Source: an uncultured Myxococcales bacterium
GTDB lineage: Bacteria > UBA10199 > 2-02-FULL-44-16 > JAAZCA01
NCBI GenBank assembly: GCA_964480565.1
Contig: CAYZSU010000002.1
Location: forward strand, 3,367 to 67,366
Direction of reading: 5' to 3'
DNA length: 64,000 bases
This document shows positions 3,251 through 54,686 of this stretch, one piece after another. How positions within the stretch are numbered: the stretch's first letter is position 1; the number at the start of each line of letters is the position of its first letter. A program made the translations under genes and the position numbers. The notes beneath the pieces were generated by a model. It searched no databases. It was given only the letters and a program-made list of their open reading frames with translations, and had not been told where the DNA came from.

Positions 3251-4885
3251 CTAATCTTTCTTTTGATGCATTGATTTCAACTTACCTATTTTCTGCTGAA
3301 TAGTGACGATATGGGTTTTAGCGCTTTTTGTCCTAGATACAATATTTAAAATAGCATCCTTATAATAACGAAGCGCTTCGGAATACTCTTTTTGATGCGC
3401 ATATACATCACCCAAATGATCCAGCACAGCTGCAGACTGCGGTGATAATTGATGTGCTTTTTTCAAATAAACCAATGCCCGCACATAATCGCCCATTTTA
3501 AAATACACCCATCCCAATGAATCGACTATAAAACTATTATTTGGCCGAATCACCATTGCTTTTTTGATCATGGCCAAAGCCTTTTCCAAATGAATATCAT
3601 GTTCCGCATATAAATATCCTACAAAATTCAATGCATCCGCATTATTGGGATTTAATACAAGTACCTGCTGCATCGTTTGCAACGCATTTTCAGATTGATC
3701 GTTTTTTTCATATAACACTGCAAGAAGAACAGCTAAGCGCTCATTGTTAGGTAATTGTTTGCGGCCATTTTTTAATATACCAATACCCTTTTGAAGTTGA
3801 CCACGCCCTTCAAGCAATGCGGATAATAATTCATAGTAATCCACAATATTGGGCTGATTTGCAATGGCGTCATTGAGTGCATCAATGGCCTTTTGAGTTT
3901 GTTTGCTATTTTGATACAAGCTCGCTAAATGCAATCTAGCATCCCTATAAAAACTCGATTGATGCGATATCACCTTCATATGCATAATAGCGTGATCAAT
4001 ATCCTTTCGATTCTCATACAATAAACCCAAGTAAAATCGAATTTTATCCGCTTCCGGATGATCGATTAAAATCGCTTCAAATACCTTTGTGGCATGATCA
4101 TATTGTTTGAGTTCATAATGAATTAATGCCATCCGCAACATGGCCGACAGATTGTCGGGCTCTGATTCCGTTATTATTTTATAGTATGTTAACGCTTTTT
4201 CATATTCTTTATCATGCAGATATATAGTGGCGAGTGCAATTAATGCATTTTTATTTTGTGAATCTACACGCAAAGCTTCTTGATATGCATGCATTGCCAT
4301 GGTTATTTTCTTATCAATCTTCTCATATATATTTCCTAAAAGCACCCAGCCTGCGACATAATCCGGATACTCATTTAAGAGTTGCTTCAATATACGTACT
4401 GCTATTTTATGCTGCCCTAAGTACACATGGGATTGAATTAAAAAAACCGTGGCTTCATGATGATTTGAATTTTTTTTCAAAAATGAGTTAAATATATCAA
4501 TGGCTTTTTTATGTTGATTGGTAGCTGCAAATAACTTCCCTAGCAGCAATATCGCGGGTTTAAGCGATTCATCCAAACCAATCGCATGCTGGCAGGATTC
4601 AATAGCAGCATAGTGTTTTTTAGAAATTGCATCATTTAATGCAGACATATAATAAAAATATGCGGTATTTGGATGTGCATCGATCAAGTCCAATATGATT
4701 TTTTTTGCCTGATTGGATTGCCCACTTTGGCTGAGCAAATCAGCGTGAAGCAACTGATAATAAGGCATTTCATCGGATTCTCTTATCACAGGCCGCGCAT
4801 TTTTTTTACCTGCACAAGATATCATAATTGACATCAGACAGATAGCCATACCCCTAATATGCCATAATTTAAAAAACTGTCTCAT
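3251..4885 (-). CDS. TPR-repeat lipoprotein
   Basis: Multiple 34-aa TPR-like repeats. N-terminus MRQFFKLWHIRGMAICLMSIMISCAGKK has a lipobox (MISC). ATG at 4885 verified (plus-strand cat at 4883-4885). The longer ORF, back to 5014, would overlap tlyA. Confidence 0.6.
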   Translation of the reverse strand: MRQFFKLWHIRGMAICLMSIMISCAGKKNARPVIRESDEMPYYQLLHADLLSQSGQSNQAKKIILDLIDAHPNTAYFYYMSALNDAISKKHYAAIESCQHAIGLDESLKPAILLLGKLFAATNQHKKAIDIFNSFLKKNSNHHEATVFLIQSHVYLGQHKIAVRILKQLLNEYPDYVAGWVLLGNIYEKIDKKITMAMHAYQEALRVDSQNKNALIALATIYLHDKEYEKALTYYKIITESEPDNLSAMLRMALIHYELKQYDHATKVFEAILIDHPEADKIRFYLGLLYENRKDIDHAIMHMKVISHQSSFYRDARLHLASLYQNSKQTQKAIDALNDAIANQPNIVDYYELLSALLEGRGQLQKGIGILKNGRKQLPNNERLAVLLAVLYEKNDQSENALQTMQQVLVLNPNNADALNFVGYLYAEHDIHLEKALAMIKKAMVIRPNNSFIVDSLGWVYFKMGDYVRALVYLKKAHQLSPQSAAVLDHLGDVYAHQKEYSEALRYYKDAILNIVSRTKSAKTHIVTIQQKIGKLKSMHQKKD

Positions 4886-6776: not shown

Positions 6777-7136
6777 TTATTTTTGAACAAATAATGCTTC
6801 AAACATGGGATCTACCTCTGCAGCATTGACAATTTGATTAGCGATCTTTAGAGCCATAGCCTCGTCAACAATATCAAATGAATCGCCGATAATCTCCCAA
6901 ACACGCTTTGTAATCGCTTGTTTAAGCTTTTCACGCCGCAATGTCCCCTGATTACCCCCCTTGGTCAGTTCATTCAACCATGCCGCACGATCTGCAAGCA
7001 CATGATTGGGCACATCAATGGATGGTGTTTTTTGTACTATTTTTTCCTTTTGATGTTTATCTGTCTCAATGCTGCCTTGTTGCAAGGCTTCCACAGATAC
7101 TTTATCCGCTAGATATTTAATTAAATCTGCTACCAT
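6777..7136 (-). CDS. Hypothetical protein
   Basis: ORF with GGGAGGAG Shine-Dalgarno sequence upstream of the ATG at 7136/7142. No recognisable domain. Confidence 0.35.
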   Translation of the reverse strand: MVADLIKYLADKVSVEALQQGSIETDKHQKEKIVQKTPSIDVPNHVLADRAAWLNELTKGGNQGTLRREKLKQAITKRVWEIIGDSFDIVDEAMALKIANQIVNAAEVDPMFEALFVQK

Positions 7137-10819: not shown

Positions 10820-10891
10820 GATTTTCCCCTTTCCTTTTCCCTTAAAGGTCCAAAGCTCACAATGTAAGCCTTAAAAAAGCGTATTTTGTAT

Positions 10892-12118
10892 TTAAAATAT
10901 TTCTCCCAACCACTCTCTCATGCGACCTTTTACTTTTGAATATACATTGCGTTCTTTGACTTTAAATCGTTTTTCATGATTGCTATTTGCACCTGCAAGA
11001 ACAAGCCCCACACCTGTGGAATACATTGAATTACGTACAACATCAACCAAACCACCAATACGCGTTGGTACACCTTTTCGAATTGGCATATTAAATACTT
11101 GCTCAGCAAGTTCTGCTGCACCATCCAACATTGAGGTGCCACCGGTTAATACAATCCCTCCGGCAATCATATCCTCATATCCGGATTTGGCAATTTCCTG
11201 CTGCGCTAAGCTGAAAATTTCTTCCATACGGGGCTCTAAAATTTCTGCCAAAATTTGTCGGGATAATACACGAGGTGCACGACCACCAACCGAAGGAACT
11301 TCGATCGTCTCATCCTTGTGAACCAAACCAGCTGTACAACAACCATATTTCTGTTTAATTTTCTCTGCTTCATGTGCAGGTGTTCGTAAACCCACAGCCA
11401 CATCATTCGTTAAGTGATTTCCACCCAATGTAAGAACAGCCGTATGCATAATCGATCCATTGGAGAAAATGGCAATATCCGTAGTACCACCGCCAACATC
11501 AATCAATGCAACACCCAATTCTTTTTCATCGGAAGATAAAACAGATTCTGAAGACGCCAACTGCTGCAGGATAATATCATTCACATTTAACCCAGCTCGA
11601 TTGCAACACTTGATAATATTTTGCGCTGACGTAACCGCCCCTGTAACAATATGCACTTTGGATTCCAAGCGAATACCGCTCATACCAATTGGATCTCGCA
11701 CACCATCTTGATCATCGACAATATATTGTTGAGGAATTACGTGAATGACTTCACGATCCAAAGGAATGGATACAGCCTGTGCCGCATCGATCACTCGGTC
11801 CACATCCAGCTGTGTTACTTCTTTTTCCTTAATTGCCACAATACCATGGCTATTAATTCCCTTGATATGACCACCCGCAATGCCTGCAAAAGCACTGCTA
11901 ATCTCACAACCCGCCATAAGTTCTGCCTCTTCTACCGCTTTACGAATAGAAGATACAGTGCTTTCAATATTTACTACCACGCCTTTTCGTAGTCCCTTGG
12001 ATGGATAAGTTCCAATACCGACAATATCAATGCCCTCATTACTAATCTCTCCTACTATAGCACAAATTTTTGTCGTACCAATATCGATCCCGACTACCAA
12101 GTCATCTCGTCTCGCCAT
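10892..12118 (-). CDS. ftsA: Cell division protein FtsA
   Basis: Actin-fold motifs VGIDIGTTKICAIV and DVGGGTTDIAIF. Position upstream of ftsZ. Confidence 0.9.
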   Translation of the reverse strand: MARRDDLVVGIDIGTTKICAIVGEISNEGIDIVGIGTYPSKGLRKGVVVNIESTVSSIRKAVEEAELMAGCEISSAFAGIAGGHIKGINSHGIVAIKEKEVTQLDVDRVIDAAQAVSIPLDREVIHVIPQQYIVDDQDGVRDPIGMSGIRLESKVHIVTGAVTSAQNIIKCCNRAGLNVNDIILQQLASSESVLSSDEKELGVALIDVGGGTTDIAIFSNGSIMHTAVLTLGGNHLTNDVAVGLRTPAHEAEKIKQKYGCCTAGLVHKDETIEVPSVGGRAPRVLSRQILAEILEPRMEEIFSLAQQEIAKSGYEDMIAGGIVLTGGTSMLDGAAELAEQVFNMPIRKGVPTRIGGLVDVVRNSMYSTGVGLVLAGANSNHEKRFKVKERNVYSKVKGRMREWLGEIF

Positions 12119-20157: not shown

Positions 20158-21294
20158 TTATCGCAATTTTAATGTCATTAAGCTCAATAACGCTAACACA
20201 ATGGATACAATCCAAAAACGTACAATCACTTTAGGCTCTGCCCATCCTTTTAATTCAAAATGATGATGCAGCGGTGCCATTTTAAAGATACGCTTTCCTG
20301 TCAGTTTAAATGAAGCCACTTGCATCATTACGGACAAGGCTTCAACAACAAAGACACCGCCAATAAGCACAAGTAAAATTTCTTGTTTTGTAATAATAGC
20401 AATATAACCGAGTAATGCACCAAGTGGCAATGAACCCACATCCCCCATAAAAATAGAGGCAGGATGCGTATTAAACCATAAAAAACCAATGCTCGCACCA
20501 ATCACCGCACAGCTAACTATCGCCAATTCACCACTACCCGTCACATATTCAATTCCAAGATAGCCCGCAATATGGGCATGACCCACAAAATAGGCGAATA
20601 CCGCATATGCAAAAAATGAAACAATTGCAGGCACTGTGACCAAACCATCCAAGCCATCCGTAATATTAATTGCATTGGATGCACCAACCATCACTAAAAC
20701 AAAAAATGGAATATAATAATTACCTAAATCGGGTCGAAATAGCTTAAAAAATGGAACGCTCATAGTCGTAGATAAACCAATAAATTGAAATACAATGATC
20801 GCTGCAATCAATGAAAATCCCACTTGCAGTACTAACTTCCATCGTCCAGCAAGACCTTTTGGGTTTTTTAGAATTACTTTCAAATAATCATCTAAAAAAC
20901 CAATTAGAGAAAAACAAACAATCACACTCAAACCAATATATACCAACGGTTCATCAAACTTAGTCCATAAAAATGAAGAGATCAGCACAGAAATCCAAAT
21001 TAACACCCCCCCCATCGTAGGCGTCCCGATTTTTTCAAGATGCGTACTCGGACCACAATCGCGAATCGCCTGCAAAAACTGAAATCGAGACAATAGACGA
21101 ATGAATGGACGACCAAAGACCAAATAAATAATCATTGCAGTAAATAGCGCCATAAGCATACGAAATGTAATATAACGAAATACATTAAAACCAATAAACT
21201 CCGTATGTAATGGATATAGTAAATAATAAAGCACGTATCTTCCTCTTTTCTTAAATGGGGCTACAAAATGCCCTAAACGCTCATCCCATTCCAA
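20158..21294 (-). CDS. mraY: Phospho-N-acetylmuramoyl-pentapeptide transferase
   Basis: Conserved NAINITDGLDGL motif. Confidence 0.95.
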   Translation of the reverse strand: MEWDERLGHFVAPFKKRGRYVLYYLLYPLHTEFIGFNVFRYITFRMLMALFTAMIIYLVFGRPFIRLLSRFQFLQAIRDCGPSTHLEKIGTPTMGGVLIWISVLISSFLWTKFDEPLVYIGLSVIVCFSLIGFLDDYLKVILKNPKGLAGRWKLVLQVGFSLIAAIIVFQFIGLSTTMSVPFFKLFRPDLGNYYIPFFVLVMVGASNAINITDGLDGLVTVPAIVSFFAYAVFAYFVGHAHIAGYLGIEYVTGSGELAIVSCAVIGASIGFLWFNTHPASIFMGDVGSLPLGALLGYIAIITKQEILLVLIGGVFVVEALSVMMQVASFKLTGKRIFKMAPLHHHFELKGWAEPKVIVRFWIVSIVLALLSLMTLKLR

Positions 21295-40648: not shown

Positions 40649-40812
40649 AAAATACTCAAACATAGTTAAAACCTCAACGTCTAAATAAAATAATATACGC
40701 CGATCCAATCATTTTTTTGATTGATGGATGCGGTATGTATTTGTGTTTTTTAAAAAACATTTCTACTATACGAAAACAATTATTTTATATCATAATGTAC
40801 GGGGGAAATAGA

Positions 40813-42558
40813 ATGACAATTGCAATCCATGTCACCCATGAAGCCATTGGAAAAATCGGCGGCATTGGGGCTGTACTTGAAGGCTTATTGCCTACTCCCA
40901 TATATCAAAAAACATTTCCAACAACCCTGCTCTATACGCCTTTATTCACAAAAGATGCCTTGCTTGAAAATCGCTTGGGCGATAATGCAGAGGTTCTATA
41001 TTCCAGCATTGACAAGTATGATAGCGATCACTGGTCTGATATATTTGCCCCCATTCAATCCATGTATGGCATTCATATTGTCTATGGTAAAAAAACATAT
41101 CAGCCTGCAGGGTCGCAATTGCAAACAGTCACTGATATTTTAGCGGTGGACATCGCTGATATGACGCCAAAATCCATCGATGCATTTAAGTATGCACTTT
41201 GGCAGCATTTTCAATTTCGCTCAGATAAATACAGCGCAGACACTGACTTTGAGCAGTTCTTACGCTTAGGAATTCCATTAACAGCCATTTTAGACAGCCT
41301 TTATCCAGAGCAGGCCGCACACATATTCTCACACGAATACATGGGTATGCCATCGGCATTGGCCATTAAGATCGCTCAAAAAAATAACTGCCGCATGCAG
41401 GATAAAACAATCTTCTATGCACATGAAATATGTACAGCCAGATCCATTGTTGAAAACCATCCTGGGCATGATCTATCATTTTATAATCTTTTGAATGCAG
41501 ATACTAGCGATGGCATTTCTATGGAAGATGAGTTTGAATCCTTTGCGCATTACTCGCGTAGCGAATTGGTCAAGCTTGCCTGCGAACTCGATCATATCTA
41601 TGCAGTAAGTGATATTACCAAACGCGAGTATCAATATCTTTGTCCTCATGTGGATATAGATAAAATTCATACTGTCTACAATGGCATTTCATACAATCAT
41701 ATTCCTTATAAGGAAAAACAAAAAAGCCAGCGATTGATCAAAACATATTGCGAATCATTGTTTAACTTTAAACCGGATTTTATTTTCACCCATGTCACGC
41801 GCCTGGTGCCGAGTAAAGCAATTTGGCGAGATATCCGTTTACTAGAGAGCCTCGACAAACACTTTGCAGCCAATCGTAAAAAGGGAGTTTTCATTTTACT
41901 CTCTACATTGATGGGTAATGGCCGCTGCAATGACGATGTACATCAAATGGAATTTGAATACGGTTGGCCCGTACTTCATAAAGAAGGATGGCCCGATCTT
42001 GTTTATTCTGAAGTTGACATCTACCGCTCACTGGAAATTTTCAATGCGCGATCGCAAGCCATCAAAGGAGTTTTCTTAAATCAATTTGGTTTTGATCGTT
42101 TACGCTGTGGCATGCGTATTCCAGAAAAAGCCAATTTTCTCCATTTACGCCAAGCCTCGGACCTTGAATTTGGAATGTCCATTTATGAACCTTTTGGCAT
42201 TGCCCAACTGGAAACACTTCCTTATGGAGGACGACCCGTAGTAAGCAGTGTATGTGGTTGTGCCTCCCTATTAAAACAGCATATGGAAAACAATGATCAC
42301 TTTATTATTGATTTCACCAAAGTGCCGGCCAAATTACAAAATGCCTTTCAGCATAAAAATGACTATAAACATATTTCAACTCAGCTACGTGATTTAGTAG
42401 AAACAGAAATTTGTAATGATGTTAGCGGGCAGTTATTTGAGGCATTGCCACACAATCAAATCAGCCGTCAAGCCATCTATGAACATATGCAGGATTATGC
42501 CAAACGATTGGATTGGAACGAAATCGCAGTCAATGTATGCAGCCCTTTTTCCAAATAA
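40813..42558 (+). CDS. Glycogen synthase, eukaryotic-type (GT3 family). Start ATG at 40813 with a GGGGGA Shine-Dalgarno sequence.
   Basis: N-terminal IHVTHEAIGKIGGIGAV matches the GT3 FEVAWEVANKVGGIYTV block. FGMSIYEPFGIAQLETLPYGGRPVVSSVCG matches GYS YYEPWGYTPAEC...G.PSVTTNLSGFG. Confidence 0.65.
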   Translation: MTIAIHVTHEAIGKIGGIGAVLEGLLPTPIYQKTFPTTLLYTPLFTKDALLENRLGDNAEVLYSSIDKYDSDHWSDIFAPIQSMYGIHIVYGKKTYQPAGSQLQTVTDILAVDIADMTPKSIDAFKYALWQHFQFRSDKYSADTDFEQFLRLGIPLTAILDSLYPEQAAHIFSHEYMGMPSALAIKIAQKNNCRMQDKTIFYAHEICTARSIVENHPGHDLSFYNLLNADTSDGISMEDEFESFAHYSRSELVKLACELDHIYAVSDITKREYQYLCPHVDIDKIHTVYNGISYNHIPYKEKQKSQRLIKTYCESLFNFKPDFIFTHVTRLVPSKAIWRDIRLLESLDKHFAANRKKGVFILLSTLMGNGRCNDDVHQMEFEYGWPVLHKEGWPDLVYSEVDIYRSLEIFNARSQAIKGVFLNQFGFDRLRCGMRIPEKANFLHLRQASDLEFGMSIYEPFGIAQLETLPYGGRPVVSSVCGCASLLKQHMENNDHFIIDFTKVPAKLQNAFQHKNDYKHISTQLRDLVETEICNDVSGQLFEALPHNQISRQAIYEHMQDYAKRLDWNEIAVNVCSPFSK

Positions 42559-44102: not shown

Positions 44103-46700
44103 TTACCCCTTCCATTTCACATATTCAGGAAATACATGATGAAACAATGCATCGTTTGGCACAATTCGAACACCCGTTTCCTGCAATCCTGATCCTTTTA
44201 TATCTAGCTCAATATTATATTTCGCAACTTTATCATCATATGTTTCAACATATGTCATGGGCATATATTTATAGTCATTTAGACCTGCTCCATACTGATA
44301 AAACAGCTCTACATTAAATAAAGACATATCTGTATCACCTGTAAACACATAGCTATCAATCACAAGATGACCCTCTGTATGCAAACTCTTTTCATCCAAA
44401 ATTGGGAAAAAATCACGAATATGAACATCTGACCAATAGCGATCAATCAGTTCTTTATGCGCGAGTAAACGCTTTAATAGCTCCCCCTTATTATGGGTAA
44501 TGCGACTAGCCATATCCATCTGTGGCAAGTAAAAGCGATACAAATAATCTCGCACTGCGCGATGCATATTAAAACCCGACGATACTGTGGCAATAGATCG
44601 CTTCATCATGGATATCCACTTTGTCGGCACATCACCTTCACCACGATCATAGTATGTGGATGTAATATCATTTTCCAATAATTCGTAAATTTGATTGGCT
44701 TCCGCTTCATCAGCAATGTCATTATTGCAACACTCTTCACCCGCATTAATTGCCCAACCATTACTACCATCATAGGCTTCTGGCCACCAGCCATCAAGCA
44801 CACTAAAGTTCAATACACCATTAATACCGGCCTTCATCCCAGATGTACCGCTTGCTTCCATGGGTTTACGTGGATTATTCAACCATACATCCACACCCTG
44901 AACTAAATGACGACCAATATTAATATCATAATCTTCTACAAAAACGACATGATTCTCTACTGGATAGTCATTGATAAATTGAAAAATACGTTTAATTAAA
45001 TCCTTGCCAATACCATCTGCAGGATGTGCTTTCCCCGCAAATACAAGTTGCACAGGCCGTTCAGGGTTAGTTAGGATAGCGGCCAATCGCTCTGGGTCCA
45101 TAAAAATTAAATTCGCCCGTTTATATGCGGCAAAACGCCTTGCAAAACCAATGGTTAAATATTCTGGATTCAAGATACTACTGATATCCATTCGTTTGCC
45201 CTTACCAATGCCACGGTGCTTCGCCATTTTACGAAGTCGCCTACGAATAAATGATACATTTTGTTCTTTTCGACGTCGATGCGCATTCCATATTTCATTA
45301 TCTGGAATTGTATCCACCTTTTCCCATAATGAATCACTTTCCGCATTATGTAGATAATCAGGCCCCACATAGCGATCAAATAATTCAGCAAGCTGCAAAC
45401 TCAGCCAACTTTGAATATGCACACCATTGGTCACGCCTTCAATTGGATACTCCGTAGTATGGCGATTGGGATATAAGCCCTTCCACATACCCCGCGATAC
45501 TTCGGCATGCAATTCAGATACGGCATTGGCTTTTCGTGAAAATTGAAGCGCCAATGCAGATAATGAAAATGAGGCATCCTTAAAGACAATTTTCTTTGTC
45601 TTTTTATCATCTGAAACCATCTCTATTTTTTCTGTATTAACTTTTCCAAAGCATAATAAATCGTTCATGGAGATATGCAGCTCATTCGCAACAGGAGCTA
45701 AGTAATCTTGAATCAATTCATCATCAAAACTTTCATTTCCAGCAATTACCGGCGTATGCGTGGTAAACACAGTGCTGTATTGAATAGTCAGCTTTGCTTC
45801 TTCCATGGAATAACCTTTTTTGGTTAAACTCAATAATCGCTCAAAAATACTAAATGCCGTATGCCCTTCATTTAAATGATAGACTTTAGGAGTAATACCC
45901 AATGCGTTCATCGCAATGATACTACCACGCCCCACCAAGAGCTCCTGCTCTAAGCGCACACGACGATCCGAATCATACAACCGTGATGTAATATAACGAT
46001 GTTCAGGCTTATTTTTTTGAATATTCGTATCCAGTAAATACAGTGGCACTCGACCTACCTGAATCTTCCAGACCTTTGCATATATAATATCTTTTTTAAG
46101 AGGCACTTCAATTATAAGTGGCGTTTGATCGTCATTGAATACCTCTGAAATCGCCCGAAGATACCATTGTTGATCTTGATATTCCTCTACCTGAGTACCG
46201 TCTACAGAAATTTGCTGACCAAAATACCCCACGCCATACTTCAATCCAAAGCTCACCATATTACAACCAATATCAGAAGCTGCCTTTAAATGGTCCCCAG
46301 CTAAAATTCCTAAACCGCCAGAATATCCTGGAATCGATTCATGCAATCCATACTCCATACATAAATAGACGATCACATCATCGGATGAAAATGGTTTTGT
46401 TTCGCCATTTTCTTTGTATACACCTTCAAAGTTCATATAGCGTTTAAATTTATCATAGACGCTATTAACCTCATATATAAATCCTTCATCCTGAGCTATT
46501 TCATTTAAGCGCATTTCACCCACATTAAAGAGTACATCGATGGGACTATGATTGTGCTCCCGAAACAACTGCGGATTAATACGGTGAAACAATCGCTGAG
46601 CATCTTTATCCCAGCAAGACCATACATTCATTGCAATTTCGCACAATGGATTTAGTGAATCAGGTATGGTGGGCTTTACAAAAAAAGAGCATAAATCCAT
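44103..46700 (-). CDS. glgP: Alpha-glucan family phosphorylase (GT35, with DUF3417-type N-terminus)
   Basis: PLP-site block ASGTSGMKAGINGVLNFSVLDGWW. GT35 length and conserved blocks. Confidence 0.85.
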   Translation of the reverse strand: MDLCSFFVKPTIPDSLNPLCEIAMNVWSCWDKDAQRLFHRINPQLFREHNHSPIDVLFNVGEMRLNEIAQDEGFIYEVNSVYDKFKRYMNFEGVYKENGETKPFSSDDVIVYLCMEYGLHESIPGYSGGLGILAGDHLKAASDIGCNMVSFGLKYGVGYFGQQISVDGTQVEEYQDQQWYLRAISEVFNDDQTPLIIEVPLKKDIIYAKVWKIQVGRVPLYLLDTNIQKNKPEHRYITSRLYDSDRRVRLEQELLVGRGSIIAMNALGITPKVYHLNEGHTAFSIFERLLSLTKKGYSMEEAKLTIQYSTVFTTHTPVIAGNESFDDELIQDYLAPVANELHISMNDLLCFGKVNTEKIEMVSDDKKTKKIVFKDASFSLSALALQFSRKANAVSELHAEVSRGMWKGLYPNRHTTEYPIEGVTNGVHIQSWLSLQLAELFDRYVGPDYLHNAESDSLWEKVDTIPDNEIWNAHRRRKEQNVSFIRRRLRKMAKHRGIGKGKRMDISSILNPEYLTIGFARRFAAYKRANLIFMDPERLAAILTNPERPVQLVFAGKAHPADGIGKDLIKRIFQFINDYPVENHVVFVEDYDINIGRHLVQGVDVWLNNPRKPMEASGTSGMKAGINGVLNFSVLDGWWPEAYDGSNGWAINAGEECCNNDIADEAEANQIYELLENDITSTYYDRGEGDVPTKWISMMKRSIATVSSGFNMHRAVRDYLYRFYLPQMDMASRITHNKGELLKRLLAHKELIDRYWSDVHIRDFFPILDEKSLHTEGHLVIDSYVFTGDTDMSLFNVELFYQYGAGLNDYKYMPMTYVETYDDKVAKYNIELDIKGSGLQETGVRIVPNDALFHHVFPEYVKWKG

Positions 46701-46741
46701 AACAATCTCCCCTGTTATTTTTTTAAATTATATCTATATAA

Positions 46742-47935
46742 TTATAAGCGCTCGCGCAAATAGGCCACTGCATTCATGAAGAACATATAGGCTTGATGTG
46801 GTGTTTGATATGGTGAAAAGTATTTATGCACATCGCCATCTTGAAAATATTTTGTACACATATAATAGTAATGATCGGATGTGGATAGTCGACGCGCTGA
46901 TTCCATTAAATCGGTACGTCCTTTTTCTTTAATTTCACGAAATACATCATAAAATGATTCAATGGCATTATGCTGTAAATCATTTTCCAACCATGCCGAT
47001 AAATCACGTTCTGTATCTGCCCATGATACTGGATAGGGATAAGATAGCACTTCAGGCGCATAATTAAGAATATCAATAGCATCCGAAGGCCAAGCAAATG
47101 ACATATGCGGGTATTTAAATACCTGTTTGGGTAAATCACGCATAAAATCAAAAATACCTGTTTCTGCCCATTGATGCTCACCAAAGGTTTCATAATCCAT
47201 AAATAAGTTAGCAAATAAATGTTTATCCCCATGCTCAACCAAACTTAATTTAGATAGCCATTGTGAAAATTTATCCGCAGTTAACGGAAATTCTGGCCAC
47301 GCACGATTTGAAAATCGAAATGCAATATCATCTGCTAAACTATAATATTTTAACATCAGCAGCATATGATGATTTTGTGCCATATACGCATATAATGGTG
47401 AACGCCAGCCTAAAATTTTCTCCACACCTTCTGCTAAAATGACTTTAAAATCAGCCTCTTCCCACACTAAATTTGAAATTGCATCCTGATAAATCAGCTC
47501 TGTATTTCGAAATACAACAGGATCATATCCGAATTCATCCTGCATCAATTGTTTGTGCATACGGACTTGTGTTAAAAATTCTTCTTGATCATAAAAAAAT
47601 GACAATGAATGATAATATGTTTCACCAATAAATTCCACACATCCTGTACGTGCCAATTCTTTGAAAGATTCTAGCACTTCTGGATAATATTTTCGAAATT
47701 GCTCAATCGCCACACCTGTCACTGAAAATGCGATTTTTACACGCCCTTCATAACGATCGATGAGCTCTTTTAATAATTTATTAGTAGGTAAATAGCACTT
47801 ATCACCAACTTTTCGAACCACAGAAGCATTTAGCTTCTCATCGAATAAATCTGTATCTCGTCCAATATCCAATACATTTAAATGTCTGACTCGATAGGGT
47901 TGGTGAACTTGAAAGTAAAAGACTATATGGAGCAT
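46742..47935 (-). CDS. Glycoside hydrolase family 57 protein
   Basis: N-terminal FQVHQPYR signature of GH57. Confidence 0.7.
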   Translation of the reverse strand: MLHIVFYFQVHQPYRVRHLNVLDIGRDTDLFDEKLNASVVRKVGDKCYLPTNKLLKELIDRYEGRVKIAFSVTGVAIEQFRKYYPEVLESFKELARTGCVEFIGETYYHSLSFFYDQEEFLTQVRMHKQLMQDEFGYDPVVFRNTELIYQDAISNLVWEEADFKVILAEGVEKILGWRSPLYAYMAQNHHMLLMLKYYSLADDIAFRFSNRAWPEFPLTADKFSQWLSKLSLVEHGDKHLFANLFMDYETFGEHQWAETGIFDFMRDLPKQVFKYPHMSFAWPSDAIDILNYAPEVLSYPYPVSWADTERDLSAWLENDLQHNAIESFYDVFREIKEKGRTDLMESARRLSTSDHYYYMCTKYFQDGDVHKYFSPYQTPHQAYMFFMNAVAYLRERL

Positions 47936-49233
47936 ATGGTTTCCTTGTATACATCAATGGCTTTCACTGCAGCATCATACCAACCAATGGACAATGCTTC
48001 TTGTTGACCTGCTAGTGCAACGCTTTCTCTTTGTTTTGGATTTTCTAAAAGTTCTAAAATAACATTAGTCATCCGATCAATATCCCAGAAATCGATTTTA
48101 TAGGCATTGTGAATCACTTCTGACACACCGGACTGTTTTGACACAACAGCCACAGCGCCATAGGCCATAGCCTCTAAAGGAACGATCCCAAAAGGCTCTG
48201 AAACAGATGGCATAATAAAAATATCCGTTCCTGATAAAATCTCTTCCACTTGATCCCGATTTAAAAACCCACTAAACAGAAATCGATCTTTCAATCGCTT
48301 TGATGCTGAATTGTGTACCATACGATTAAACATATCACCACTACCTGCCATGACAAAACGCACATTGGGATATTTATCAAGCACGCGTCTGGCAACTTCT
48401 AAGAAATAGTCCGGTCCTTTTTGAATGGTGACTCGACCTAAAAAGAGCACCATGAGATCTTTAAATACTTTTCGCCGTTTTTTTCGAAGCGGTGACATCG
48501 AATAGGCATTATATACCACACGCACTTTTTTAGGATGAACCACATATCGATCCATAATCATTCGTGATGTATATTGTGACACTGAAATCACACGATCCGC
48601 AGAGGTTAGGCCCGCATATTCAATTTTATGAATTCGATCATCCCCCTCGCCACCAGAGCGATCAAATTCTGTGGCATGAATATGGGAAATCAATGGGATT
48701 TCCAATAGATCCTTTAACGGAACTGCGGCCGGATATGTCAACCAATCATGTGTATGAATCAAATCATACCCCAACAAGTTGTGCGCATTTTTCAATACTC
48801 GCTCTGTAAAAAATCGTACCTGCTTAAAAATATCCTCTTCGCCATATATATGTTCACTTAAATCATCGACCGCTTCCACTTTCCAATTAATTCGTTTATT
48901 TAAAATGCGATCTACTTTTTTTCGAATTTGTTGGGCAGGCGTCACATATGAATCAGGATACTGTTTATAGCCTAAATTAATCATGCGTTCCTGAACATCT
49001 TCACTCCAATTTTCTTCACAAATAGATTCCATTCGCTTGTCCATCGCAACATATGGCAAGTTATCCACATCATCCGGTGTACGTAATTGAAAAATGACAT
49101 TTTTTTCCGTGGGCAGTAGCATATCCACTTCCACGCCCAACTCCAAAAGTGCTCGGATTAATCCATAACATGCCATCCCCAATCCACCGGAAATAAATGG
49201 CGGAAATTCCCATGTTAGTAGCAGTATTTTCAT
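47923..49233 (-). CDS. Glycosyltransferase family 4 (GT-B), alpha-glucan-synthase-like
   Basis: MKILLLTWEFPPFISGGLG N-terminus and a C-terminal E-x7-E-like GT4 region. Confidence 0.7.
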   Translation of the reverse strand: MKILLLTWEFPPFISGGLGMACYGLIRALLELGVEVDMLLPTEKNVIFQLRTPDDVDNLPYVAMDKRMESICEENWSEDVQERMINLGYKQYPDSYVTPAQQIRKKVDRILNKRINWKVEAVDDLSEHIYGEEDIFKQVRFFTERVLKNAHNLLGYDLIHTHDWLTYPAAVPLKDLLEIPLISHIHATEFDRSGGEGDDRIHKIEYAGLTSADRVISVSQYTSRMIMDRYVVHPKKVRVVYNAYSMSPLRKKRRKVFKDLMVLFLGRVTIQKGPDYFLEVARRVLDKYPNVRFVMAGSGDMFNRMVHNSASKRLKDRFLFSGFLNRDQVEEILSGTDIFIMPSVSEPFGIVPLEAMAYGAVAVVSKQSGVSEVIHNAYKIDFWDIDRMTNVILELLENPKQRESVALAGQQEALSIGWYDAAVKAIDVYKETICSI

Positions 49234-49246
49234 GAATTCCCCTTAC

Positions 49247-51253
49247 CTATACATCCAATAGTAGATGTTCAATTTCCAATAGTGCAAATACATTTCTCGC
49301 ATATGCGCTACAACCTTTAGGCATGTATGGATCAATGCCATCCCATAGTTCTGCAACACTTGCCATCTCACCCTTTAAAAACCCATCCCGAAATACCCAT
49401 ACATATTCAGATAGGCGACGAATAATCAATTCTCGTTCCATTGTATTGGATAGCGCTTTTAATGCGAGCTTTACAAAGGGCAACATTAAAAATGGCCATA
49501 CAGTTCCTTGATGACATGCCAAGTTGCGTTGCCGCTCTCCACCCACATAGCGTTGCTTAAATGACGCATGATTTGGTTCTAAACTGCGAAGGCCATATGG
49601 CGTTAATAATCGCTCTTCTGCCAATTGCCAAATACGCTGCAGTTGATCTTTTTCTAAAAAATCAAACGGCAATGATGCTGCAATCACTGCATTTGGCCGA
49701 ATATCCCAAATCACACCTGTATTATCTATTCGATCCGCTAAGTAGTCATCTCCCATAAATCGCTGTAAGGACTGACGAACTTGATCACGAAGTTTTACAA
49801 TATCATCATATGTGGCATGAAGTGCATTGGATTGAAAGTCGGATAGTGTTAATGCGTCCGCCATCTCAATAAATGCACATAATCCATTATACCACAATGC
49901 ATTCACTTCAACAGGCTTGCCGCTACGCGGTGTCACTGGTTTTCCATTAATATCTGCATCCATCCATGTTAAAGCAAGATCATTATTGCGAATGCAGAGC
50001 AATCCATCCTCATCACAGAAAAATGGCAATGTCGCATCCAAATAATAATGAAGTACAATATCAACCATTGTTTGAAATAAAGCGCTATTTTTCAATTCAA
50101 ACGCGTGACTATGAATCAAAAACCATAGAGAAGCATCAATACTATTATAATTCCGTACTAAATTCTCTGATGCCAATTCATGTGGAATCAAACCATTTTT
50201 CTGTAAAGCCGCATATTTCTTTAATATCTGATGTGCAACCACTTTACCATTGGACGTATATTTCAAGCCACTCATACAGGTCATTGTATTCCGACCACTA
50301 AATGAATACCATGGATATCCCTTGGCAATATCACTCTTATTTACAATAAAATCATTGGCTGCAACCTCAAGCAATTGATAATAATCGGTTCGCTTAAAGG
50401 GCTCATTGTGCATAGCATTATGCGTTTCCAAATACGCATGCGCAGATGTGTTCTCAGGATGATCTTCCGGAGCAATCAATGATTTATAATGATGCTGCGC
50501 TTTTGCCACTTCAACCGCACAGTCTGTGACAGATGTATCAGAAAATAGCATCCACCGACTGGTATGTGGCTCCAAATGAATCATAATACGTACCGGTGAA
50601 ATTAAATCTTCAACAGATTGATAGCCGCGAGCAGCCTCAGTTGGGTAATAGATGGATTCGTAAATAGCCTTATCTTCCCATAGCTGCCCATCTTCAATAT
50701 ATCCAAATGCATTTATTTGATTATCTTCACGGCTTATTTGAAATGAATTTTCCTGAGCCTCATACGACAACTGTGTCCGATGCCATGTACCAGATAAGTT
50801 AATATCATAATGATTGCGCAAACTAAACTTTGGCCGGACAACTAAATCAATCGCTTGATCGCCAAGATTATTATATTTAACAACCACCGCATTTTTTCCC
50901 GGCACCATAAACAATTCACGTGAAATCATTAGATCCGGCATTGGCGGTGTTGTTGAATACACGGTACACGGATAGGGTCGCAACCATGTTTTTAATATTT
51001 GTGCATAGCCATGTGGAAAAATACAATTTGCATAATGGTTGGAATCCAAATGAAAGTTACTTCCTTCCAACTCAACCAACTCTTCCATACAGGATAAAAT
51101 ATGATGTTTATTTTCACTGTCCGTCGCTGCAATCAATAAACCATTATACTTTCGTTTATTGAGCATATTCCCAAAGCCAAGCGCATACCCGCCAATACCA
51201 TTGGTCAGCAGCCATTCTCTATCAGAAATTTTCTGAAAAGAACCACTTTTCAT
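49247..51253 (-). CDS. Amylo-alpha-1,6-glucosidase / glycogen debranching enzyme (archaeal type). Start ATG at 51253; the alternative ATG at 51271 runs through the poly-C/G tract.
   Basis: GDE N-terminal block EWLLTNGIGGYALG...RKYNGLL. C-terminal (alpha/alpha)6 barrel blocks. Confidence 0.8.
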   Translation of the reverse strand: MKSGSFQKISDREWLLTNGIGGYALGFGNMLNKRKYNGLLIAATDSENKHHILSCMEELVELEGSNFHLDSNHYANCIFPHGYAQILKTWLRPYPCTVYSTTPPMPDLMISRELFMVPGKNAVVVKYNNLGDQAIDLVVRPKFSLRNHYDINLSGTWHRTQLSYEAQENSFQISREDNQINAFGYIEDGQLWEDKAIYESIYYPTEAARGYQSVEDLISPVRIMIHLEPHTSRWMLFSDTSVTDCAVEVAKAQHHYKSLIAPEDHPENTSAHAYLETHNAMHNEPFKRTDYYQLLEVAANDFIVNKSDIAKGYPWYSFSGRNTMTCMSGLKYTSNGKVVAHQILKKYAALQKNGLIPHELASENLVRNYNSIDASLWFLIHSHAFELKNSALFQTMVDIVLHYYLDATLPFFCDEDGLLCIRNNDLALTWMDADINGKPVTPRSGKPVEVNALWYNGLCAFIEMADALTLSDFQSNALHATYDDIVKLRDQVRQSLQRFMGDDYLADRIDNTGVIWDIRPNAVIAASLPFDFLEKDQLQRIWQLAEERLLTPYGLRSLEPNHASFKQRYVGGERQRNLACHQGTVWPFLMLPFVKLALKALSNTMERELIIRRLSEYVWVFRDGFLKGEMASVAELWDGIDPYMPKGCSAYARNVFALLEIEHLLLDV

Positions 51254-51491
51254 ATTCCCCCCCCCGTACACCTCTTCATATGCAAATCACATAATTGAAA
51301 TAAAATATCATTAGCTTTAATTTTTAATCGAGTAATTATGATACTTAATTTGGATATTAATATCAGTACTTGATCATGAAAACAATATAGAAACACACAC
51401 TTATAACTTTTTTTTCAATTGAGTCACTTTTGTTTTGCGTCATTGTTCAAGAACGTGTACAAGACTTTTAAATAATTCATGGAGGAGAAAT

Positions 51492-51845
51492 ATGGCAAAG
51501 AAAATCGTAAAAAAAGTAGCTAAAAAAACAACAGCAAAAACAAAGAAAACAACGACACCAACAAAACGTACAACCAAAGCCAGCACGACTAAAACTGCTA
51601 CGAGCAAAACAGCTGTCACAAAACGGACACCCACAAAGCGAACAGTTAAAGCATCTACAAAGAATCAACGTCGCTTCACACTAACCGAAATTAATGCCTT
51701 AACACAAGTTCGTGCATTTGAGTTATACCAAAGCCGCACCAATACAGATGGCAATGAAAACTCTGATTGGCAAAGAGCTCAAGAACAAATCTGCATAGAA
51801 TTTGGAATTGATCTTAACACTGTATTAAATAAAAATTTCAAGTAA
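51492..51845 (+). CDS. Histone H1-like Lys/Thr-rich DNA-binding protein with C-terminal DUF2934-like motif
   Basis: GGAGGAG Shine-Dalgarno sequence. KK(V/T)AKKTTAKTKKTTTPTKRT... low-complexity basic region. C-terminal VRAFELYQSRTNTDGNENSDWQRAQEQI. Confidence 0.6.
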   Translation: MAKKIVKKVAKKTTAKTKKTTTPTKRTTKASTTKTATSKTAVTKRTPTKRTVKASTKNQRRFTLTEINALTQVRAFELYQSRTNTDGNENSDWQRAQEQICIEFGIDLNTVLNKNFK

Positions 51846-51873: not shown

Positions 51874-52350
51874 TTAACACCTAAGCAATGCTTGGGTGTT
51901 TTTTCGTTTACCCACAAAAAACTGTTTTAACAACTGACCACACTCTTTTGCCATTACACCACCTGTAATATCCACCTGATGATTGAGACGTTTATCCGTC
52001 AACACATTGTATAATGACTCAACAGCACCTGCTTTTGGATCATAACAACCAAATACAATACGAGATATACGTGATTGATAAATAGCACCCGCACACATTA
52101 CGCACGGTTCACATGTCACAATCAATTCAACACCATCCAGTCGCCATGACTTTATTTTTTTTGAAACATCGCTGATTAAAAGTATCTCCGCATGCCCTAT
52201 TGGATTTTGATCACATTCACGACGATTATGTGCACGTGCAATAATTTGATTGTCTTTCACCGCAATGGCCCCAATGGGCACTTCATCCATTGCCATTGCT
52301 TTTTTGGCTTCATCAATGGCTTGCTTCATTAAAGCTTGACTAGCTATCAT
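51874..52350 (-). CDS. tadA: tRNA-specific adenosine deaminase
   Basis: Zinc-binding HAEILLI and CEPCVMCAGAI motifs. Confidence 0.85.
   Translation of the reverse strand: MIASQALMKQAIDEAKKAMAMDEVPIGAIAVKDNQIIARAHNRRECDQNPIGHAEILLISDVSKKIKSWRLDGVELIVTCEPCVMCAGAIYQSRISRIVFGCYDPKAGAVESLYNVLTDKRLNHQVDITGGVMAKECGQLLKQFFVGKRKNTQALLRC
51877..51905 (+). terminator. Rho-independent terminator of the histone-like gene, overlapping the last codons of convergent tadA
   Basis: ACACCTAAGCA-atg-CTTGGGTGT followed by TTTTTT. Confidence 0.6.
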
Positions 52351-52422: not shown

Positions 52423-53394
52423 ATGCTACTACAATATATTCCTTTAAAAAATTTGAATGTTGCTGATGACAGCTACCGAATTACCTTTGCACCTGAATTG
52501 GATAACTTAAAACGTTCTATCAAGTCCGTAGGCGTTATTCAACCAATCAATATCAGGCACACAGCTGAAGGTACATTCCAAATCGTCACTGGGTATAAAC
52601 GCGTGCTTGTCATGCAAGAGATTGAACGTCAATCAGTACCAGCGCTCATTCACGAACCTGGAGATTTATCGCCCACACAAGCATTTTTGTGGAACCTTCA
52701 TGACAATGCAATCACACGCTCATTAAATCTAGTTGAAAAAAGCATTGCACTCAATAAGCTTCAGCAATTTTATTCCATTGCTGAAGATGATTTGGCCAAA
52801 CAATTCTTACCATTGCTTGGCATTGAGCCAAGCTATAAAATTTTACATCAGTTATGCGCGCTAGATCAACTTATTGAGCCACTCAAAACTCATATTGTTG
52901 AATCACAAATGGCATTATCATCTGCAGCTCGTATTGCTGACTTCTCACCAACGACGCAACAAGCACTATTAGCAGTGCTCTTACATATTAGACCCTCTAC
53001 AAGCAAGCTAAATGAATTACTATCCTTACTCCGTGAAATTTCAGCTCGCGATGGAATTACAGTGGAAGACATTTTAAGTCGTTATAAATTACTACAAGTA
53101 GTGGCCAATCCAGAGGCCACATCTGGTGAAAAAGTGGGCGCGCTCAGACAAGCATTGCGCGGCATTCGACTTCCACAACTCACACAACGCCAAAAGGAAT
53201 TGGCCAATCTCATACAAAATCTAGAATTACCTGATTCCGCAAAAGTAGTGGCAGACCCATACTTTGAAAACAATAATATGAAATTGGAATATCGATTTTC
53301 CAATCCAAAGGAATTGGATAGTTTAGTTAAAAAGATTCAAGATGCATTTTCAAAGCAAAAATGGCAGCAAATATTTGAATGGTATCGCAATTAA
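52423..53394 (+). CDS. ParB/Srx-fold (ParB-like) DNA-binding protein; no ParA partner in the window
   Basis: ParB N-domain pattern IPLKNL...YRIT...SIKSVGVIQPINIR...FQIVTGYKRVLVMQEI, followed by an HTH-like region. The arginine patch is GYKRV rather than GERRxRA. Confidence 0.5.
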   Translation: MLLQYIPLKNLNVADDSYRITFAPELDNLKRSIKSVGVIQPINIRHTAEGTFQIVTGYKRVLVMQEIERQSVPALIHEPGDLSPTQAFLWNLHDNAITRSLNLVEKSIALNKLQQFYSIAEDDLAKQFLPLLGIEPSYKILHQLCALDQLIEPLKTHIVESQMALSSAARIADFSPTTQQALLAVLLHIRPSTSKLNELLSLLREISARDGITVEDILSRYKLLQVVANPEATSGEKVGALRQALRGIRLPQLTQRQKELANLIQNLELPDSAKVVADPYFENNNMKLEYRFSNPKELDSLVKKIQDAFSKQKWQQIFEWYRN

Positions 53395-53507: not shown

Positions 53508-54686
53508 ATGCATTCCCAAACCTCATCATTTTCTGTACAACCCTTAAAAACGCGACACCGTAAAAAGAAAACACTATTTCCTTTTTTACCAGAGCAAGTT
53601 TGGGTGGATCGAAATATAGTATCACATCCACAAACCATCCGTATTCTCAATCAATTACAAGATGCAGAAATAGACATCGTTGATAATATTCGTTCATTAA
53701 AAACACCCGCAAGCCTCAATATAGCCAAAAAACAACTTGTTCTCACTGAACACAAAGGGCATGCCTTTAAAGAATGCCAGGGTATCACTCCCAACCACCT
53801 GTGCTGTAATTACCGCACATTGGACTTAGTATCTGGCTGTCCCATGGATTGCAGTTATTGCATTTTGCAATCCTATCTAGCAAACAACCCCATCACCACT
53901 GTATATGTGAATTTGGAACAAATTCTCGACCAAGTGGCAAGCTTTCTAAAGTCAAACAAGGGTACCCATTTTCGTATTGGCACAGGTGAATTAGGAGATA
54001 GCCTCGCATTAGATCCAATCATCGATTATGCGAGTATTTTAATTCCCTTTTTTGCACAGCAAGACAATGCTGTATTAGAATTAAAGACAAAAACAAATTT
54101 TGTCGATCATATCCTAAAATTACGCCATCGCAATCGAACCATTATTGCATGGTCGATAAATACACCTGATTATATTCAAACAGAAGAAAGTCATACTGCC
54201 AGCTTAGAAAAACGGATTGAAGCGGCACAAAAAGTCATTCAAGCAGGATATCGTGTGGCATTTCACTTTGACCCCATTTTTATACTTAAGGACATTGATA
54301 CTGAGATGGCGGCATATCAAGATGTCATTGCCACTATATTCGAGCATATTGATCCACAGTATATTGCCTGGATCAGCTTAGGGCTACTTCGCTATCCAAA
54401 AAATTTACCTCAAATCGCAGAAAAACGATTTCCAAATACCCGTATTTATACGGGCGAACTCGTACCATCGGATTCAAAAGTCAGGTATTTGCGATTTATT
54501 CGTGAACACGCATATAAATTACTTTGGAATACCTTTCAAAAATATATTACCACCAACAAACTATACCTTTGCATGGAAACTCACACAGTTTGGCAAAAAG
54601 TAGATACATCCATTAACAGCAATGAATGCATTGATAAACGACTGTGCACACAGGAAAATGTTTTGTTTGATTTTAAAAATTTTTAG
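53508..54686 (+). CDS. Spore-photoproduct-lyase-family radical SAM protein (SplB-like)
   Basis: CxxxCxxC cluster VSGCPMDCSYCILQSY. Blocks YVNLEQILDQ and KRIEAAQKVIQAGYRVAFHFDPIF align closely with Bacillus SplB. The alternative start at 53439 is less likely. Confidence 0.65.
   Translation: MHSQTSSFSVQPLKTRHRKKKTLFPFLPEQVWVDRNIVSHPQTIRILNQLQDAEIDIVDNIRSLKTPASLNIAKKQLVLTEHKGHAFKECQGITPNHLCCNYRTLDLVSGCPMDCSYCILQSYLANNPITTVYVNLEQILDQVASFLKSNKGTHFRIGTGELGDSLALDPIIDYASILIPFFAQQDNAVLELKTKTNFVDHILKLRHRNRTIIAWSINTPDYIQTEESHTASLEKRIEAAQKVIQAGYRVAFHFDPIFILKDIDTEMAAYQDVIATIFEHIDPQYIAWISLGLLRYPKNLPQIAEKRFPNTRIYTGELVPSDSKVRYLRFIREHAYKLLWNTFQKYITTNKLYLCMETHTVWQKVDTSINSNECIDKRLCTQENVLFDFKNF

Follow-up and report, generated by a model that had tools for sequence, protein, structure and literature searches.

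The stretch of DNA analysed here, the window (positions 1-64000, 64 kb), has a GC content of 38.7%, and a crude gene call divided it into 55 genes with a coding fraction of 92%. A cluster of four glucan genes lies on its minus strand. The first encodes a glycogen debranching enzyme of the bacterial/archaeal type (GDE, 49247..51253, 668 aa), in which the domains GDE_N (PF12439, 1.4e-46) and GDE_C (PF06202, 7.8e-67) were recognised; the protein is also similar to TIGR01561, but under the cut-off of that model. It is followed by a gene for a GlgA-like glycosyltransferase (47923..49233; Glyco_transf_5 N-domain and GT1) with the Shine-Dalgarno (SD) sequence AAGGGGAATTC-ATG, by a GH57 glycoside hydrolase gene (46742..47935) that overlaps the preceding gene by 13 nt, and by an alpha-glucan phosphorylase gene (44103..46700; DUF3417 and phosphorylase domains, TIGR02094 at 761 bits) with the SD CAGGGGAGATTGTT-ATG. 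A divergent gene of 117 aa with the SD GGAGGAGAAAT-ATG lies on the plus strand at 51492..51845 and encodes a basic Lys/Thr-rich tail and a DUF2934-like motif. This order of four genes was kept in the four closest orthologous loci, each with a small divergent DUF2934-like gene ahead of it. The co-orientation of GDE, glycosyltransferase, GH57 and phosphorylase genes described in an earlier note on this DNA was borne out as that of one conserved cluster, and the divergent 117-aa gene is a conserved partner of the glucan operon.

The Lys/Thr-rich tail of the divergent gene product is N-terminal, and the motif RAFELY...DW..AE.Q, which is weakly DUF2934-like, is C-terminal. Its counterparts lie at 3428-3697 in locus L089, 5491-5736 in L090, 5445-5654 in L091 and 5373-5603 in L092. 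Upstream of the glucan cluster follow genes for a TadA-like deaminase (51874-52350) and a ParB_N-domain protein (52423-53394), the latter adjoined by a spore-photoproduct-lyase-like radical SAM gene (53508-54686, plus strand). The GC skew of the window is strongly negative throughout and uniform (about -0.1 to -0.26), with most genes on the minus strand.

Variants with at least 90% identity were found for none of six proteins (GDE, glycosyltransferase, phosphorylase, the 117-aa protein, FtsA and FtsZ) among 15 billion proteins, and relatives of FtsZ reached at most 75% identity, those with a name being MAGs labelled Deltaproteobacteria or Pseudomonadota. The window therefore belongs to a poorly sampled deep lineage. 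A GTDB scan with exact peptides returned no close relative, and a GTDB profile scan returned relatives of at most 42% identity; these were used for the survey of orthologous loci given below.

A homopolymeric tract ahead of the debranching enzyme gene

Nine consecutive C at 51257-51265 of the plus strand, exactly as given in the earlier note, form a G9 tract on the minus, coding strand (sense order 51265-51257), where the surrounding sequence reads ...CATATGAAGAGGTGTAC GGGGGGGGG AAT ATG AAA AGT GGT.... No other G/C run of nine or more was found in the window. The expectation for C runs of this length from a first-order Markov model was 0.09 per window. The counts of C runs of length 3 to 6 were 460, 83, 14 and 3, a drop of about five-fold per extra base, and extrapolation of this decay gave about 0.03 runs of nine or more per 64 kb window. 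The rarity of G/C homopolymers claimed earlier holds at the local scale, with no second run of this length and 0.03-0.09 expected. It does not hold for a whole genome, since the decay-based value corresponds to about one such run per 2-3 Mb genome. C6 runs lie at 6955, 17729 and 24561. A G8 tract at 21006..21013 (minus strand), the next longest run, served as a control; it falls within the mraY coding sequence (ATG GGG GGG GTG, PTMGGV motif; TIGR00445 at 397.6 bits, cut-off 192). This cell-wall gene is essential and belongs to a complete dcw cell-division and cell-wall cluster at about 9.5-28 kb. Long G runs are thus tolerated in this DNA and are not by themselves signs of a switch.

Homopolymer lengths are error-prone in sequencing, and two-colour chemistries produce spurious poly-G. 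The G9 tract could accordingly be an Illumina poly-G artefact, a miscalled homopolymer length or an error of assembly. The exact GDE protein was found on seven contigs, of which three were read: JGI 3300009008 (37 kb), JGI 3300007511 (19 kb) and Logan SRR8062321 (16 kb). Each matched the window at 100% identity over 5.3-8.0 kb and carried G9, so that the tract is present in four assemblies. Because identical G9 tracts in identical flanks occur on contigs that differ in length (16, 19, 37 and at least 64 kb), in sample and in assembler, the tract is no assembly artefact, and an artefact of any of these kinds is scarcely credible.

None of the three assemblies that were read broke at the tract. 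The contigs of JGI 3300007511 break about 300 nt upstream of it, inside the Lys/Thr-rich gene, and two of them overlap there by about 125 nt (51562-51686). This split suggests a repeat or micro-heterogeneity in the low-complexity Lys/Thr-rich gene, not at the G tract.

Start codon of the debranching enzyme gene

The position of the tract relative to the coding sequence depends on the start codon. The mechanical longest open reading frame of the gene begins at GTG 51271-51269, which shares its frame with ATG 51253-51251, and translation from the GTG would read VYGGGNMKSG... with the tract encoding GGG. We compared the N-terminus with those of its 16 nearest homologues in alignment A1, which share 42-49% identity with the window protein. 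These start at the column of ATG 51253, the first methionine of the product from this codon is nearly invariant in the alignment, and an N-terminal extension with GGG was absent from every orthologue in it. The aligned N-termini are MKSASLRVTSDREW for the top orthologue P0003 and MKSGSFQKISDREW for the window; the proteins themselves begin with MKSASLRVTSDREWLLTNG in P0003 and MKSGSFQKISDREWLLTNG in the window GDE, and the orthologue N-termini align with MKSGSF.... Gene calls in the three other assemblies also gave the exact 668-aa product from ATG 51253. The true start codon of the GDE gene is therefore the ATG at 51251..51253 (minus strand).

With this start the G9 tract lies in the untranslated 5' leader, which excludes a frameshift switch. 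The earlier note had offered a coding reading of the tract, of which the in-frame translation was correct and the start codon was not; its statement that the gain or loss of one base would shift the frame of the enzyme falls with it, because the tract is non-coding. A coding ON/OFF switch, in which translation starts at GTG 51271 and slippage by one base in the GGG codons puts the enzyme out of frame, can point to the frame of this GTG and to its place at the head of the longest ORF. It is nonetheless very improbable, given the orthologue N-termini and the choice of the ATG by gene callers. The GTG is moreover embedded in a GAGGTG motif with no SD upstream of it, and the ATG 18 nt downstream, with an SD of its own, would still yield the full-length enzyme after a frameshift.

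The motif around the GTG belongs to an SD-like sequence AGAGGTG at 51269..51275 (minus strand), which contains GTG 51271-51269. Its GG core ends 17 nt before ATG 51253, and it is too far from this codon to be a working SD.

The tract as a probable ribosome-binding element

Relative to ATG 51253 the G9 tract (51257..51265, minus strand) covers positions -12 to -4 and lies within the SD range of about 4-13 nt, which bears out the earlier proposal that it would fall in the SD and spacer region if translation started at this codon. The closest orthologue locus, L089, which encodes P0003, reads TTGGAGGTGTTTC-ATG with GGAGG at -11 to -7, and in an ungapped alignment this GGAGG falls directly under the G9 of the window. 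The SDs of the four closest loci are of ordinary kinds, namely GGAGGTG, GGAG, AAAGGA and, if P0007 starts at its second methionine, AGGGGAG.

G-rich SDs are also the style of the window itself. Most of the 55 crude gene calls are preceded by GGAG, GAGG or GGGG motifs, many of them of the GGGG(A) type. Of the 128 G/C runs of at least four bases, 13 are G runs on the sense strand in the 20 nt that precede a start codon. The share of sequence space taken up by such positions predicts about 1.1 (about 12-fold enriched), and two of these 13 precede other genes of the glucan cluster. Examples of such G-run SDs are ACGGGGGAAATAGA-ATG at 40813 and AAGGGGAAAATC-ATG for ftsZ. Sites of the GGGG(A) type are seen at 40801-40805, 49234-49250, 46701-46720 and 10820-10843, among others. 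The organism's own 16S rRNA gene lies outside the 64 kb window, and pairing with the anti-SD was modelled with the generic 16S tail ACCUCCUUU. With this tail, which may not be the organism's own, the duplex with G9 had a modelled energy of -10.6 kcal/mol, the second strongest of the 55 genes.

Given the use of G-run SDs in the window and the position of the L089 GGAGG under G9, the tract is most simply read as the SD of the GDE gene, in an extreme form of the local G-run style. From its position and the modelled pairing, we consider it likely that G9 is the SD ribosome-binding element and part of the spacer of the GDE gene, homopolymeric and tolerant of register. It shares with canonical SD sites a G-rich sequence that is predicted to pair with the CCUCC core of a generic 16S 3' tail, a position at -12 to -4 in an SD-using genome, and the place held by GGAGG in the closest orthologue. 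It differs from them as a pure homopolymer of nine bases that also fills the spacer and has no single defined register. The tract probably arose from an ordinary SD of the GGAGGTG type through A-to-G and T-to-G substitutions, through expansion by slippage, or through both. The element is most likely an ordinary, lineage-specific homopolymeric SD.

We screened for comparable tracts in 84 homologous loci, made up of the four closest orthologous loci and 80 others from GTDB genomes. None of the 84 contained a G run longer than five within -60 to +30 of the start. The long G run is therefore specific to the lineage of the window, and its absence from orthologues speaks against the switch proposed in the earlier note.

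Alternatively, the tract might be a functionless run produced by chance or slippage, for example through an insertion of 12 nt (G9AAT) by which an older SD, AGAGGTG, was moved out of range, with GDE translation independent of the tract. Two observations lend this some support: the sequence AGAGGTGTAC directly upstream of the tract resembles the GGAGGTGTTTC-ATG of L089, and the run-length decay predicts that chance alone would give about one such run in each genome. Against it, the distal motif is 17 nt off, which leaves the tract as the sole SD-like sequence close enough to work; G-run SDs are the rule in the window, and the ungapped alignment sets the tract exactly over the orthologue GGAGG. 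This alignment is the simpler explanation, so we keep the insertion as a minor rival. We regard the functionless run as unlikely.

Effects of tract length

The earlier note had proposed that changes in tract length by one base would alter the spacing between SD and start codon and thereby toggle the expression of the glucan operon. If the tract itself is the SD, the first part of this proposal fails. The 3' edge of the G run is fixed by AAT-ATG at 3 nt from the start codon, so that a gain or loss of one G moves the 5' edge alone. The modelled anti-SD duplexes of G8, G9 and G10 had energies of -10.4, -10.6 and -10.7 kcal/mol (generic tail), and the modelled duplex energy fell below the typical range of other genes only from about G5. 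In the folded leader the mean unpaired probability from -13 to +3 was 0.72, 0.71 and 0.72 for G8, G9 and G10. These values come from a thermodynamic model of the leader with a generic anti-SD, in which kinetics, any trans-acting factors and the upstream ORF play no part. The 16S tail could pair with the homopolymer in any register, and a tract with one G more or less would keep a GGGGG block at the usual distance of 5-9 nt. In this model a change by one G would be neutral for GDE expression. At nine bases the tract is as long as homopolymers usually regarded as slippage-prone (G/C of 7-9 or more), and it may itself be prone to slippage. It could well be more mutable than its surroundings, with length changes that would be nearly neutral for expression.

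The comparison of assemblies agreed with a single tract length. No difference in tract length was seen among the four assemblies, which record the majority allele of a single clonal population without any SNP and, as consensus sequences, have low power for length variants. As far as four consensus assemblies go, the one length of G9 speaks against a switch. Public metagenome contigs were also scanned for alleles of other lengths, with the flanks separated by a variable gap and with the first 26 coding bases, and none were found; both scans were empty, which points to a collection without this organism. With modelled pairing and accessibility flat and one length in four assemblies, the toggling of the glucan operon by tract length was left unsupported, and the tract is probably not an ON/OFF switch.

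A scan of the leader for promoters found no sigma-70-like hexamer pair that spans the tract, and phase variation through promoter spacing was rejected on this ground. The scan gave one weak promoter-like match at 51366-51338, far upstream of the tract.

A further reading frame in the leader could make tract length matter. An upstream ORF of nine codons, MKRCTGGGI*, was read from the sequence at 51250..51279 (minus strand); it runs from ATG 51279 through the tract to TGA 51252-51250, and its stop codon overlaps the main start codon as ATGA. The ORF lacks an SD and is unlikely to be translated. Regulation through this ORF, with tract length setting its frame, is a route of low probability.

Poly-G/C contingency loci subject to phase variation are known from Neisseria, Campylobacter, Helicobacter and Haemophilus. 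In classical poly-G phase variation the tract lies in the reading frame or sets promoter spacing, and its length is polymorphic. The G9 of the window resembles such simple-sequence contingency loci in being a poly-G of typical length at the 5' end of a gene. It differs from them in lying outside the reading frame, in not lying between promoter hexamers and, in the leader model, in not setting a critical spacing. The gene is also a housekeeping gene for a storage carbohydrate, not one for surface structures or restriction-modification. No length polymorphism was seen in the four assemblies, a comparison of low power; the orthologues are without the tract, and no change in expression is predicted by the model.

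A graded effect is a different proposal from a switch. The tract might act as a slipped-strand rheostat of translation that tunes the expression of GDE or of the operon, through a change in SD strength or in the structure of the leader, through a shift in the frame of the upstream ORF, which G10 would fuse in frame to GDE and G8 would extend by 19 codons into GDE, or through altered binding of a C/U-rich sRNA or of a GGA-binding protein such as CsrA, comparable to the RepG-targeted tlpB repeat. The length of G9 above the usual thresholds of repeat instability, its rarity in the window and the ATGA overlap between the upstream ORF and the main start would fit such a role, as would the fact that the glycogen operon of E. 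coli is a classical CsrA target. There are also published precedents in which the length of a leader G tract controls translation (PMC11898584; PMC8295292). In the 5'UTR of M. tuberculosis espR, changes of a single G in a 7G tract alter translation (PMC11898584), and the length of the G repeat in the tlpB leader of H. pylori, the target of the sRNA RepG, sets translation (PMC8295292). These tracts are found at a distance from the SD, vary among isolates and exert their effect by way of an sRNA or a refolding of the leader (PMC11898584; PMC8295292). The tract of the window likewise consists of G alone and lies in an mRNA leader. Unlike them it is probably the SD itself, no refolding was predicted for it, no partner RNA was found in the 64 kb and no variation in the four assemblies.

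Several further results weigh against the rheostat. One length is seen in four consensus assemblies, the tract is lacking at all 84 homologous loci, modelled SD pairing and accessibility are flat with length, the upstream ORF has no SD, and glycogen metabolism would be an atypical contingency function. A search of the 64 kb window for C/U-rich partner RNAs returned nothing beyond a tRNA and sequences antisense to the SDs of other genes, and an E-value search of the leader gave no Rfam match; a repeat search of the leader also returned nothing. We consider a rheostat of this kind rather improbable. There is a decidedly small chance that G9 is a length-dependent rheostat of the storage-glucan operon that acts through coupling to the upstream ORF or through a RepG-like sRNA or CsrA-type binder, with heterogeneity at the level of reads masked by the consensus. 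If this were true, control by leader G repeats, seen in host-adapted pathogens, would extend to the central carbon storage of an environmental lineage. A real switch would likewise be an unusual case, in which a deeply branching uncultured bacterium controls its glycogen metabolism stochastically.

The preferred reading, a homopolymeric SD, has a bearing of its own on repeats of this type. Such an SD would be tolerant of register by construction, and slippage within it should be buffered and not switch-like. In genome scans, long G/C runs adjacent to start codons should be vetted, before they are taken for phase-variation switches, against the true start codon as shown by the N-termini of orthologues, the SD style of the genome and control tracts in essential genes such as the G8 of mraY. 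Locus L089 carries a sense-strand G9 of its own at 11628-11636, in the central part of a 584-aa ORF without a Pfam match that adjoins the glucan operon of this locus.
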